Both the position numbers and the translations under genes were made by a program. Below the pieces are notes generated by a model. The model saw only the letters and a program-made list of their open reading frames with translations. It ran no database searches and was not told where the DNA came from. 64,000 nt of DNA, from contig OY970166.1 of the NCBI GenBank assembly GCA_963706595.1, positions 288,001-352,000 on the forward strand. The letters run 5' to 3'. Numbering within the stretch: the first letter of the stretch is position 1; each line of letters begins with the position of its first letter. This document shows, piece by piece, positions 30,346-62,285 of this stretch. Origin of the DNA: an uncultured cyanobacterium. GTDB taxonomy: Bacteria > Cyanobacteriota > Cyanobacteriia > Cyanobacteriales > Nostocaceae.

Positions 30346-31329
30346 TTAGGCATTCGATCCATTTGCTGGTGTACTGCTAACAGTTGCTGTTGAACCAACA
30401 GGGAAAGCGTTTATTTCACGGGTCATAGCCCAGTCACGCAGCGCTAGAACTGTAAAAGCGACTAAAGTACCCAGCAAAACTGCCCCGACAGTCTGGTGAG
30501 AAACTGTCAAAAGCTCGACTTGAAGATGTAACCGGAAGGTGGCAATTCCCAAAACTATTTGTAACAGCAATAACCCACCAGCCAGATTTGCCAGTCGCCG
30601 CAAAGTTGGATGCAGTGCTGGTGTCCGTCGGGAGATGAATACCACTGCCAAAGTAGCCACAGTTGGCGGTACTAAGCCAAAAATATGGCTATACATCACA
30701 TTACAAAGCTGAGAATCTCCAAAGCATTGGTGTAAAGCCCAACGAGACCCTACTAAAGCACCGAGTATACTTTGCAGGTAAACAAAAATCACGGCACTTA
30801 AACCCAACCAAGGTAACTTACCAACAGTACCAGTTCCTTGATAGGGTGTGAGGGCGATGCCGACAATCAGTAGGGTAGTGAAAAACAACAGCGCCGTTCC
30901 CAAATGGGCGGTAACAATATCAAACCGCAACAGTTGAGTGACGGTGAGTCCTCCCAAAATACCTTGGAAGACGATTAAAAACAGGGCAAATGTGGATGCC
31001 CAAGGTAGCCAAGTGGGTAAAAAACGCCGATGCCACCAGGATAAACCAGCTAAGGCGATCGCGCTTAAACCAATTAACCCGGCATCCAATCTGTGAAACC
31101 ACTCCAAGAAAACTTGAAGATTCATTTGCTTGGCTGGTACCAGTTCCCCGTAGCATAATGGCCAATCTGGGCAAGCCAGCCCAGCATTCATCACACGGGT
31201 GGCACTGCCTATGGCCATCAAAATCAAGGTGGCTATGCATATTTTCCACACCAAGCGACGAATTACTTCCTTGGGCTTTCGCTGCTCAGTTGCCGCTTCA
31301 TTTTGTTGTTCTAGGACAAATTCATTCAT
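30346..31329 (-). CDS. ctaA: Heme A synthase (COX15/CtaA)
   Basis: AGLACPDWPLCYG, EWFHRL. Confidence 0.96.
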   Translation of the reverse strand: MNEFVLEQQNEAATEQRKPKEVIRRLVWKICIATLILMAIGSATRVMNAGLACPDWPLCYGELVPAKQMNLQVFLEWFHRLDAGLIGLSAIALAGLSWWHRRFLPTWLPWASTFALFLIVFQGILGGLTVTQLLRFDIVTAHLGTALLFFTTLLIVGIALTPYQGTGTVGKLPWLGLSAVIFVYLQSILGALVGSRWALHQCFGDSQLCNVMYSHIFGLVPPTVATLAVVFISRRTPALHPTLRRLANLAGGLLLLQIVLGIATFRLHLQVELLTVSHQTVGAVLLGTLVAFTVLALRDWAMTREINAFPVGSTATVSSTPANGSNA

Positions 31330-31733
31330 GAACAGTACCTTCCACCCGTTCTTAGTGGTAGCTCTCTTAAAATTTTCAATTTTTAGTAACGACCCATCTA
31401 CACCCTAACGTATGAGCCAGAGTTTAAAAGATTGGCTTGCACTTATACTTTGGATCACTCCAGCTACTTTTAGCCGGAGCTTTAGGTATTTTTTAAGTTA
31501 TCAGCAATTGATAAATGAGAATTAATTTTGCTAACCTCAAATTTTTGGCAATTATTCTCCGCATTTATGTTGACTTTTGGCAGTATCCAATAAATCTCTT
31601 GTACCCAAAATTAGTAAACTAGCTGGAAAAATTAATAAAATCTTAAAACCATGAGACTCCAGATTTTATTACCTGCACTACCTTAGTAAGTGAGTAGCAT
31701 AGAGATAACGTAGTAAATTCATTTAAGTAAACC

Positions 31734-32828
31734 GTGAAGATTCCAAGTTCCATCTGGACACTACTAATTGGTGTCGTACTAACGCTATTAAGCCTTTGGT
31801 ACGGTCAAAATCACGGTCTGTTACCAGTAGCCGCCACAGACGAAGCCGTTCTAGTGGATGGTCTGTTTAACACGATGATGATCGTTTCCACAGGTATATT
31901 CTTACTTGTCGAAGGTATTTTGATTTACTCTGCAATTAAATATCGTCGGCGAGCAGGTGATAACGACGATGGGCCAGCAATTGAGGGCAACGTACCTTTA
32001 GAAATTCTCTGGACGGCGATCCCAGCAATTATCGTTCTCGGTATTTCTGTTTATAGCTTTGAAGTGTACAACGACATCGGCGGCTTTGATCCTCACTCTG
32101 TTCATGAAGCCCCGATGACTCAGGAATCCATGACAATGCCGGGATCTGCGATCGCCGCAACTTTAAGCGATACCCCTCCCAGCACAGGCTCCAACCTGAA
32201 TCAGGAAAAGTCTGATCAGGCAATGGAAGACCCAGCCACCGCAGCAGTCCGCAATGCTGACCAAATTCCCCAAAAACGCAATGCGCCTGGGGTGGGTAGT
32301 GTGGCTCCCACAATTGGGGGTAGTCCCGAAAGAGCAGGTTTACCACCAGAATTACGAGTTAATATCACTGGTTTACAATATGCGTGGATTTTCACCTATC
32401 CTGATACAGGCATAACTACAGGTGAGATGCACGTTCCCGTGGGTCGGGAAGTCCAAATTAACATGACCGCCAATGATGTTATCCATGCTTTTTGGGTTCC
32501 AGAATTCCGCTTGAAGCAAGATGCTATCCCCGGTAGACAAAGCGAAATTAGATTCACCCCCAGAATAGCTGGTACTTACGACCTGATTTGTGCTGAACTT
32601 TGTGGCCCTTACCACGGAGCGATGAGAAGCCAAATAGTGGTAGAAACCCAAGAAGCTTATGACGCTTGGATGACAGAACAATTAGTTGCTAGCGGCGAAA
32701 CACTAAATCAAGCCGTGGCTGTAAATTCTGCGGATTTATCCCCAGATGAATTTCTAACTCATTACACTAAGGACATGGGGATTAAACCAGAAATGCTACA
32801 TCATATGCACCAAATGAGTGTGGAGTAA
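31734..32828 (+). CDS. coxB: Cytochrome c oxidase subunit II
   Basis: DVIHAFWVP, CAELCGPYHGAM CuA site. Confidence 0.97.
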   Translation: MKIPSSIWTLLIGVVLTLLSLWYGQNHGLLPVAATDEAVLVDGLFNTMMIVSTGIFLLVEGILIYSAIKYRRRAGDNDDGPAIEGNVPLEILWTAIPAIIVLGISVYSFEVYNDIGGFDPHSVHEAPMTQESMTMPGSAIAATLSDTPPSTGSNLNQEKSDQAMEDPATAAVRNADQIPQKRNAPGVGSVAPTIGGSPERAGLPPELRVNITGLQYAWIFTYPDTGITTGEMHVPVGREVQINMTANDVIHAFWVPEFRLKQDAIPGRQSEIRFTPRIAGTYDLICAELCGPYHGAMRSQIVVETQEAYDAWMTEQLVASGETLNQAVAVNSADLSPDEFLTHYTKDMGIKPEMLHHMHQMSVE

Positions 32829-32865
32829 AAAGTGCTGCTAGCTGAGTTAGGGGTTAATCTCTGAC

Positions 32866-33045
32866 CGAAAAAATGGGATACAAGCCCCGTCTTTTTAAGA
32901 CGGCTTTCTGGTCAAATATGTATAGTCGCCATAGGGCATTGGGAGACTTTAAACGAACGTCGAGGGATGGTAAGACTATTTCGATAGCACAACCCAATGA
33001 AGCGTTAAGGAATCCTCTCTCCTTCAGGAAGAGGAGGTATGTCAC
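32866..33045 (+). mobile_element. Non-autonomous IS200/IS605-type mini-element (left end + TnpB-like omega/reRNA scaffold + right end), copy 1
   Basis: Near-identical second copy at 62079-62285; subterminal hairpins at both ends; preceded by TGAC; ends GTATGTCAC; no terminal inverted repeats or target duplication. Confidence 0.8.
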
Positions 33046-33171
33046 TACGCTGACAATACCAAGCAAAAAATTCATGGTCATTCAGTCCTGAGAAACAACT
33101 AGGGAACACCAAAAAATTAATTTCCCGAATGACTAATGACCAATGACTAATGACTAATGACTAATTAACTT

Positions 33172-34866
33172 ATGACACAAACTCAGTTAGAAAAAACTGC
33201 CAATATCCCGCCTCATATAGAAGAACCAGAAGAAAGACATTGGCTAGACTTCTTTGGTTTCAGCACCGATCACAAGGTAATTGGAATTCAATACCTAGTT
33301 ACTTCTTTTGTTTTCTACTGCATTGGCGGCGTAATGGCTGACTTGGTGCGAACAGAACTACGCACCCCGGAAGTAGATTTTGTTACCCCAGAAATTTATA
33401 ACAGTCTATTTACACTGCACGCCACAATCATGATTTTTTTGTGGATTGTGCCAGCCGGGGCTGGATTTGCTAATTATCTGATTCCCCTGATGATTGGGGC
33501 GAGAGATATGGCATTTCCGCGCTTGAATGCTGTGGCTTTTTGGATGATCCCCCCGGCTGGTGTGTTGCTCATCGCTAGTTTAGCTCTGGGTGATGCGCCT
33601 GATGCTGGTTGGACTTCCTACCCTCCTTTGAGCTTGGTAACAGGTCAAGTGGGTGAGGGCATTTGGATTATGAGTGTCCTGCTGTTGGGTACATCGTCGA
33701 TTTTGGGAGCGATTAACTTTCTAGTTACGATTCTCAAAATGCGTGTTCCTAGCATGGGCGTTCATCAAATGCCTTTGTTTTGCTGGTCGATGTTGGCAAC
33801 TTCGGCTTTAGTGTTGCTATCTACACCAGTTTTAGCAGGGGCGCTGATTCTGCTGGGCTTTGATTTGTTAGCAGGGACAACATTTTTTAACCCCACTGGC
33901 GGGGGTGATCCGGTGGTTTACCAGCATATGTTCTGGTTCTATTCTCATCCGGCGGTATATATCATGATTTTGCCGTTCTTTGGGGCAATTTCGGAAATTC
34001 TGCCAGTTCATGCCCGTAAGCCGATTTTTGGCTATAAGGCGATCGCCTATTCATCTCTAGCAATTAGTTTCTTAGGGCTAATCGTCTGGGCGCACCACAT
34101 GTTTACCAGTGGTGTCCCCGGTTGGTTACGAATGTTTTTTATGATCACCACCATGATCATTGCTGTACCCACTGGAATTAAAATTTTTGGTTGGTTAGCA
34201 ACTATCTGGGGTGGCAAAATCAGTCTGAATAGTCCGATGATCTTTGCGATGGGCTTTTTAAGTACCTTCGTAATTGGCGGGATCAGTGGTGTAATGTTAG
34301 CCGCAGTTCCCTTTGATATTCACGTTCATGATACATATTTTGTAGTCGCACACTTGCACTACGTCCTGTTTGGTGGTAGCGTCTTAGGAATTTTTGCTGC
34401 TATTTACCACTGGTTCCCGAAAATGACGGGACGGATGATGAACGAATTTTGGGGTAAAGTTCATGCTGTATTAACCATTGTTGGTCTGAATATGACCTTC
34501 TTACCCATGCACAAGCTAGGGCTGATGGGAATGAACCGCCGAATTGCCCAATATGACCCGAAATTCACCTCATTGAATGAAATCTGCACCTACGGATCAT
34601 ATCTTTTGGCGATTTCGACATTACCCTTTATCATCAATGCTGTTTGGAGTTGGTGGTATGGCGAAAAAGCTGGTGATAATCCTTGGCGGGGACTCACCCT
34701 AGAATGGATGACTACCTCACCACCAGCCATTGAGAATTTTGATCCACTCCCGGTATTAGCTACTGGCCCTTACGACTATGGCGTAAGTAACAAAGAAGTG
34801 GATATTCAGGAGGTTTTAAATATCGAACCTGGCGAACCATACCCAACTATTGAGTCTGGCGCTTAA
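33172..34866 (+). CDS. coxA: Cytochrome c oxidase subunit I
   Basis: STDHKVIG, WFYSHPAVY, WAHHMF, HDTYFVVAHLHY. Confidence 0.98.
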   Translation: MTQTQLEKTANIPPHIEEPEERHWLDFFGFSTDHKVIGIQYLVTSFVFYCIGGVMADLVRTELRTPEVDFVTPEIYNSLFTLHATIMIFLWIVPAGAGFANYLIPLMIGARDMAFPRLNAVAFWMIPPAGVLLIASLALGDAPDAGWTSYPPLSLVTGQVGEGIWIMSVLLLGTSSILGAINFLVTILKMRVPSMGVHQMPLFCWSMLATSALVLLSTPVLAGALILLGFDLLAGTTFFNPTGGGDPVVYQHMFWFYSHPAVYIMILPFFGAISEILPVHARKPIFGYKAIAYSSLAISFLGLIVWAHHMFTSGVPGWLRMFFMITTMIIAVPTGIKIFGWLATIWGGKISLNSPMIFAMGFLSTFVIGGISGVMLAAVPFDIHVHDTYFVVAHLHYVLFGGSVLGIFAAIYHWFPKMTGRMMNEFWGKVHAVLTIVGLNMTFLPMHKLGLMGMNRRIAQYDPKFTSLNEICTYGSYLLAISTLPFIINAVWSWWYGEKAGDNPWRGLTLEWMTTSPPAIENFDPLPVLATGPYDYGVSNKEVDIQEVLNIEPGEPYPTIESGA

Positions 34867-62016: not shown

Positions 62017-62078
62017 TATGATCAGTGGTCGGTTGTCAGTTGTGAATTACTCTTGATGACTGACTGCTAACTATTGAC

Positions 62079-62285
62079 CGAGAATAACGGGATACAAGCC
62101 CCGTCACTTCGACAAGCTCAGTACAAGCCTTTTAGGACGGCTTTCTGGTAAAATTGGAATATAGTCGCCATAGGGCATTGGGAGACTTTAAACGAACGTC
62201 GAGGGATGGTAAGACTATTTCGAGAGCATCGACCCAATGAAGCGTTAAGGAATCCTCTCTCCTTCAGGAAGAGGAGGTATGTCAA
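62079..62285 (+). mobile_element. Non-autonomous IS200/IS605-type mini-element, copy 2 (about 23-bp insertion in left-end hairpin)
   Basis: Matches 32866-33045; preceded by TTGAC; ends GTATGTCAA. Confidence 0.8.

Follow-up and report, generated by a model that had tools for sequence, protein, structure and literature searches.

A gene-less IS605-family mini-element in a cyanobacterial cox operon, one of a multicopy family with a covarying, predicted TnpB omega-RNA scaffold

The interval between coxB and coxA in the 64,000-nucleotide stretch of cyanobacterial DNA analysed here (the window) contains a gene-less mini-element of the IS605 family (a PATE) that occupies 180 bp of the + strand, with limits set by an empty allele and by alignment of the copies in the genome. 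We are fairly confident that the best explanation of this element is a PATE with a complete TnpB omega-RNA scaffold, which would make use of TnpA and TnpB in trans. PATEs encoding omega-RNAs used in trans are an already known kind of element, and the cox locus is no discovery in itself. The original prediction, of a protein-less IS605-type element of 180 bp between coxB and coxA, was borne out, and the left and right hairpins, the ends in GTATGTCA(C/A) and the lack of a target duplication are as it described for two copies. The features are as follows.

31734..32828, + strand: coxB, cytochrome c oxidase subunit II (TIGR02866, above cutoff)
32862..32865, + strand: TGAC target motif (TAM), host DNA left of the element; kept in the empty allele TCTGAC/TACG (slash, junction) and present before all nine full genome copies
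32866..33045, + strand: the mini-element at the cox locus
32881..32884, + strand: left-end DNA guide CAAG, predicted to pair with TGAC (TAM/guide covariation)
32882..32906, + strand: left-end hairpin (TnpA site), near-identical to the left end of the IS605 element at G000:C1:449016
32909..32917, + strand: decayed extended -10 box TGgTCAAAT (family TGnTAnnnT; A to C at hexamer position 2 in the cox copy)
32925..33045, + strand: predicted TnpB omega-RNA scaffold, 121 nt (covariation; 142.8 bits with covariance model R1, whose training set includes this sequence)
32925-30/32942-47, 32956-33006 and 33013-33035, + strand: scaffold parts, namely the 5' stem, the long hairpin and the right-end hairpin (covariation)
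32935..32939, + strand: pseudoknot 5' strand GGCAU, pairing with AUGUC at 33039-33043 (alignment of 30 sequences)
33010..33013, + strand: right-end DNA guide GAAT, predicted to pair with TCAA (sequence and the IS608 rule)
33042..33045, + strand: terminal tetranucleotide TCAC (family norm TCAA)
33046..33061, + strand: flanking host DNA, predicted to supply a 16-nt guide that matches the empty site
33172..34866, + strand: coxA, cytochrome c oxidase subunit I (TIGR02891, above cutoff)
62079..62285, + strand: second copy, 207 bp; -10 box intact, end TCAA, left hairpin loop enlarged by a 23-nt repeat

The element begins 37 nt after the coxB stop and ends 126 nt before the coxA start, both genes being identified with NCBIfam models. 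No open reading frame of at least 80 aa overlaps the 180 bp; a transposase or tnpB gene is absent, and the element is too short for one. Sub-terminal palindromes related to those of IS605 are present, inverted terminal repeats are absent, and the right end is homologous to that of IS605.

A search of the 5.57-Mb genome with BLAST and the covariance model returned 10 copies, nine full and one without its left part, a copy number that the original prediction had proposed to check and had not noticed; the recurrence it did report, at 62079-62285, was confirmed, as was its expectation that relatives would carry empty alleles. G003 reads TCTGAC followed directly by TACGCTGAC, an exact, scarless empty site for the cox copy, and G009 reads TATTGAC followed by TATATAAC at the site of the second copy. 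The element was absent from the coxB-coxA interval of all 10 aligned relatives. TGAC precedes 9/9 full copies; TCAA ends all nine copies other than the cox copy, which ends in TCAC. Seven copies differ by at most two bases over the 121-nt right part, and a host reading frame that would otherwise be continuous is split by the copy at C1:3448392. The scarless empty sites, the split frame and the near-identity of copies therefore indicate recent mobility by IS200/IS605-like insertion: the element inserts 3' of TGAC without duplication and has moved recently. The host gene interrupted by that last copy (G000:C1:3448392-3448579) encodes what we take to be a class II aldolase/adducin-family protein.

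Several further observations concern insertion sites. In G005 (L004), the empty coxB-coxA site reads TGTCAC/TACC rather than TCTGAC/TACG and resembles the right junction of the cox copy, which may reflect either two substitutions or the scar of an imprecise loss. A repeat of about 23 nt lies in the left hairpin loop at window positions 62106-62128, in four other genome copies and in L149, L240, L076, L128, L142 and L143; the insertions are sometimes nested, and the core of the repeat has 11 matches in the genome. Two insertions (G000:C1:3728624-3728722 and C1:3115822-3115918), one mini-derived and one IS605-derived, consist of a right end without a left end, with TGAC joined directly to the scaffold just past the TTAA(A) linker; these are possibly products of one-ended transposition from a cryptic cut site. 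Tandem repeats containing TGAC, which may be insertion hot spots, are abundant in the 62017-62078 interval of the window, after an iscA-like gene, and the interval after the iscA-like gene in another genus (L203, G020) holds an independent, decayed mini. We rejected an ancient shared insertion at the iscA locus, where 1/29 other-genome loci is filled, by a different subtype with different flanks.

The same genome carries candidate helpers. Two full IS605 elements (C1:449016-450726 and 675527-677237), with divergent tnpA and tnpB genes, follow TGAC and have a left end almost identical to that of the minis, so that the search for a full-length tnpA/tnpB parent proposed earlier led to two intact elements, whose omega-RNA is related to that of the minis. 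Their TnpA scores above the IS200 transposase cutoff and their TnpB above the guided_TnpB cutoff, and the TnpB retains RuvC residues D195, E278 and D360 and zinc-finger cysteines, the roles of which we presume by analogy to ISDra2. We consider it very likely that TnpA from these two copies moves the mini as single-stranded DNA, in trans. With model R1, full minis scored 116-145 bits, the IS605 right ends 97-98 and an IS605-end fragment 65, while the remaining hits, including other TnpB ends, reached at most 46.5. The local IS605 scaffold differs from that of the mini in its 5' stem letters and falls in a separate clade, and because of this difference compatibility between the mini and the IS605 TnpB is an assumption.

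Under the IS608 rule, the target motif pairs with the left-end DNA guide. Among the matches listed, 62 distinct left ends could be parsed from 92 loci of gene-less relatives, and 59/62 fit this rule: TGAC occurred with CAAG in 43, TTAT with AAAA in 14 and TTAC with AAAG in 2, with 3 off-rule. Such TAM/guide covariation is likewise expected in the available part of PMC10055086. Five tnpB elements with the same left end (L106, L159, L166, L171, L177) carry, in place of tnpA, a short divergent open reading frame that looks like a putative small DNA-binding protein.

To place the element in a family, we searched GTDB genomes with an exact 23-nt pattern from the scaffold start and recovered at least 113 loci, 80 with 1.8-kb flanks and 33 with short flanks. 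Hosts among the matches listed span several orders and include Nostoc, Nodularia, Dolichospermum, Calothrix, Microcoleus, Chamaesiphon and Arthrospira, among others. With the mini and long classes set by the hairpin and not by the -10 box, the 113 matches listed comprise 67 minis, 25 long elements, 16 other or degenerate copies, 3 with tnpB directly upstream and 2 that are too short. The long elements (about 25/113 of the matches listed) are gene-less; between the -10 box of their left end and the omega scaffold lies an additional conserved module of 110-160 nt that is non-coding (L034, L038, L051, L053, L082, L103, L105, L115, L120, L122, L125, L126, L134, L028). This module, which we take to be T-loop-rich by resemblance, is the most unusual thing we saw; in the four loci tried, Rfam returned nothing for it at E<=1. 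A contig labelled Sphingobacterium (L097, L102), probably mis-binned, carries a cyanobacterial-type IS605 and a mini.

Relatives that bear tnpB and share the ends and scaffold, on which the original prediction depended, were found. A search of 121 genomes for TnpB gave 30 loci, 24 of them with a parsable scaffold of the same type and 3/24 with the mini's own 5' variant, and metagenomes supplied four further tnpB ends of this kind; tnpB genes terminate in the same scaffold in L075, L102, L135, L170, L172, L173 and L232-L235. Parents therefore exist, yet the mini's scaffold variant is mostly gene-less. The 107 ends parsed among the matches listed terminate in TCAA (100), TCAC (4), TCAG (2) or TTAA (1), and a right-end variant ending GGTATGTCAA was present in 47/64 minis versus 0/38 tnpB-bearing ends. 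A tree of the 121 columns was poorly resolved: minis do not form one supported clade, and 15 label changes are needed.

Same-genus genomes with a full-length TnpB of the clade held 2, 23, 5, 4 and 6 other scaffold hits versus 2, 3, 0, 3 and 1 in those without one, counts from which tnpB-adjacent hits were subtracted by coordinates and which come from kin that are not independent; TnpA would account for this trend equally well. A full-length TnpB of the mini's clade was not found in G002, G003, G007, G010, G019 or G028, where copies persist.

We assessed the fold on an alignment of 77 distinct scaffolds, comprising 75 of the 113 matches listed and the two window copies, once near-duplicates, insert-bearing copies and ends that could not be parsed had been removed. 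RNAalifold and mutual information concur on a 5' stem, a long three-part hairpin and a right-end hairpin. In the consensus structure, 95.2% of paired cells could pair (85.1% when shuffled, 28-47% when partners were slid), and 259 double changes were seen versus 67 in shuffles, including in helices outside the TnpA hairpin; these controls lean in the structure's favour because it was derived from the same alignment. The 5' part was tested on 30 sequences, 22 of them tnpB-bearing ends, because its first 23 nt are fixed by the search pattern. In that set, the 5' stem alternates between CC/GG, GC/GC and GG/CC, and the GGCAU/AUGUC pseudoknot is paired in 100% (n=30), with 3 double changes that affect one pair and occur in tnpB-bearing relatives only. 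The search for covariation among copies that had been suggested, with a covariance model, thus yielded covarying helices across the 121-nt scaffold, among them the predicted CTAT-TTCG-ATAG hairpin (helices 5-6). The two long-range pairings proposed at the same time did not survive: the letters of CATTGGG/CCCAATG and TTAAACG/CGTTAA exist but are unconserved, with 80.5% of cells paired versus 80.4% in shuffles and a single double change, and we rejected them as covarying at shuffle level. Folding of the element as a single sequence was no better than shuffles (z -1.35), and Rfam returned no match to the element at E<=5 and nothing meaningful for nine related loci at E<=1.

On a minimum spanning tree that joins 46 mini scaffolds, 34 double changes outside the TnpA hairpin keep their pairing, versus 1-3 with slid partners; between neighbours, internal helices are broken by 37 single changes and by 11 double ones. 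Since the sequence tree is poorly resolved, with its 15 label changes, part of this covariation could predate the loss of tnpB or come from recombination.

Among the matches listed, 44/46 distinct minis have a TAnnnT hexamer whose end lies 5-9 nt ahead of the first G of the scaffold (shuffle mean 12.7, max 22), and 33/46 have the TG extension, TGnTAnnnT (shuffle mean 1.1, max 7). The distance to the scaffold start is 7-9 nt in 41/44, and the surrounding letters vary. The box near the scaffold occurs in 1/27 tnpB-bearing ends and 1/21 long elements, in which the box lies further upstream. Its presence in the minis and near-absence from tnpB elements make the mini look like a dedicated omega-RNA cassette, which would rely on TnpA and TnpB in trans. 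In this genome, TGgTAAAAT is present in 8/8 other full copies, in contrast to TGgTCAAAT at the cox copy. A strict sigma-70 scan of 31300-33300 on the + strand found no promoter, the evidence for the -10 box being the family comparison, and none of four element motifs appeared in three supplementary files of a Nodularia genome-transcriptome paper (PMC3610870).

Taken together, we propose that the mini would be a non-autonomous IS605 derivative, made up of a left end, a promoter-like box and an omega-RNA scaffold doubling as the right end, that TnpA would mobilize in trans by peel-and-paste. Intact copies are likely to produce an RNA that starts at the 5' end of the scaffold and runs into the flanking DNA. 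We lean, by a smaller degree of belief, toward this RNA loading the IS605 TnpB in trans, so that TnpB would cut empty alleles consisting of TGAC plus the guide sequence and repair would copy the element back from a filled copy.

Alternatively, the minis could be inert deletion relics, moved by TnpA, with an RNA that is unmade or unused and a fold inherited from tnpB-bearing parents. The cox copy without a -10 box, the genomes in which the cognate TnpB was not found and the failure of the minis to form one supported clade are all compatible with this reading. A relic, however, would not be expected to hold its -10 box at a near-constant distance amid variable neighbouring letters, nor to accumulate compensatory changes between gene-less neighbours in helices that TnpA does not need, and the right-end variant private to minis suggests long evolution without tnpB. 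We therefore regard the relic as unlikely.

It is quite improbable, in our judgement, that the RNA binds TnpB but serves mainly as a competitor or decoy, diluting TnpB from the autonomous element, or fills a host role. Minis do outnumber the tnpB genes of the clade, by 10 to 2 here (G000) and by 23 to 2 in G004, and the guides have no target in the genome: 13 predicted guides gave 0 matches elsewhere, for which reason we also rejected guides aimed at other genome sites, and the cox-copy TGAC plus guide (16 nt, <=2 mismatches) had no other match in G000. Each guide is, however, the flank of its own insertion and matches the empty allele, and insertion sites are strain specific, with no conserved guide seen. 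A regulatory element of the cox operon (a leader RNA or an attenuator) retained because it benefits the host can be dismissed as highly improbable, since despite its sense orientation between coxB and coxA, a left hairpin (32882..32906) with a weak terminator-like score on the + strand and two mutations that would fix it in place, the interval lacks the element in 10/10 aligned relatives, the same sequence sits at nine unrelated loci and the two terminator-like hits equal the shuffle mean of 1.9.

Returning to the trans-acting PATE that we favor, the cox copy appears to be an exception within its family. Having lost the -10 box and reading TCAC instead of TCAA, it is probably locked and quiet, transcribed only by cox read-through. 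The original prediction had noticed neither the -10 box of the family nor these two mutations. The original prediction had the element co-transcribed in cox mRNA; this does not hold for the family, which normally has its own promoter-like box, and would apply only to the mutated cox copy. Its scaffold is itself intact and in sense with cox, and so would be part of any coxB-coxA transcript, although we doubt that this copy makes an active guide RNA, which it could do only if processed out of the cox mRNA. In the available part of PMC10055086, end-motif mutants excise solely via an alternative downstream motif; rescue of excision by a nearby TCAA was rejected here, as on the + strand the next one is reached within coxA, about 243 nt downstream. 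The TCAC junction is also unlikely to be self-targeted, given that single TAM changes abolish cleavage in the same source.

A more far-reaching idea, which we hold only tentatively, is that the minis are an old, self-standing omega-RNA gene lineage, in which promoter and scaffold evolved without tnpB across several orders and left ends were switched (TGAC, TTAT, TTAC) while one scaffold was kept. If true, the RNAs of such a lineage would load TnpBs from different TAM classes and account for most of the cell's TnpB guides, a dispersed guide repertoire (10-23 per genome versus 2 tnpB genes) built on a natural broad-compatibility scaffold. The family in any case offers a clean test case for whether gene-less PATEs keep an omega-RNA under selection to borrow TnpB: the promoter position is conserved, the fold covaries, a candidate TnpA/TnpB pair shares the genome, the empty sites are exact, and the cox copy, as a natural double mutant, can serve as a control. 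Because insertion needs only TGAC, unannotated minis add promoters and hairpins inside cyanobacterial operons.

An earlier test of stand-alone omega-RNAs in trans was reportedly carried out on IscB. The stand-alone omega-RNAs of OMEGA systems, in the accessible text of Altae-Tran et al. 2023 (PMC10691335), are like the minis mobilized, lack an effector or transposase, share genomes with effector loci and have a stated trans function; that paper cites an earlier one for the trans test. In the literature searched, as far as its text was available, borrowing of TnpB by PATEs is stated as an idea, and a test for TnpB was not found. A description of the cyanobacterial mini family was not found in the open-access literature searched; PATE also appears in a figure legend of bioRxiv 10.1101/2023.11.20.567912, and the accessible portion of a 2026 review (PMC13565253) held nothing further on PATEs.

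PATEs were defined in Haloquadratum walsbyi (Dyall-Smith et al. 2011, PMC3119063). As far as the consulted part of that paper goes, they resemble the minis in having near-terminal palindromes and no inverted terminal repeats, making no target duplication, being too short for a transposase and showing strain-specific insertions, and short repeats insert into their palindromes, a parallel to the repeat of about 23 nt in the left loop here; they differ in being archaeal and in having been described before omega-RNAs were known. The PATE-like element of Halanaerobium hydrogeniformans (PMC7290912, from the portion available) likewise fuses a left-end hairpin to the 3' end of tnpB and a whole right end, but it is a single 271-nt copy, whereas the cyanobacterial minis are a multicopy, phylum-wide lineage. 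According to the accessible sections of Meers et al. 2023 (PMC10055086), PATEs frequently carry an omega-RNA on which TnpB has to act in trans, and the PATE-like elements of Geobacillus stearothermophilus share with the minis the lack of protein genes, IS605 ends with TAM/guide covariation and an omega-RNA proposed for TnpB in trans. Unlike those elements, the minis belong with a cyanobacterial TnpB clade, use TGAC, TTAT and TTAC targets and keep one scaffold lineage over several orders; they also have a conserved extended -10 box at the predicted RNA start, and an analysis of PATE promoters was not found in those sections. Finally, although its sequence is unrelated to the mini scaffold, which has no Rfam match, the omega-RNA of ISDra2 TnpB, from the available part of Nakagawa et al. 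2023 (PMC10097598), is alike in its length of about 116-121 nt, its long internal stem and 3' hairpin, and a pseudoknot in which the 5' loop on stem 1 pairs with bases just before the guide.
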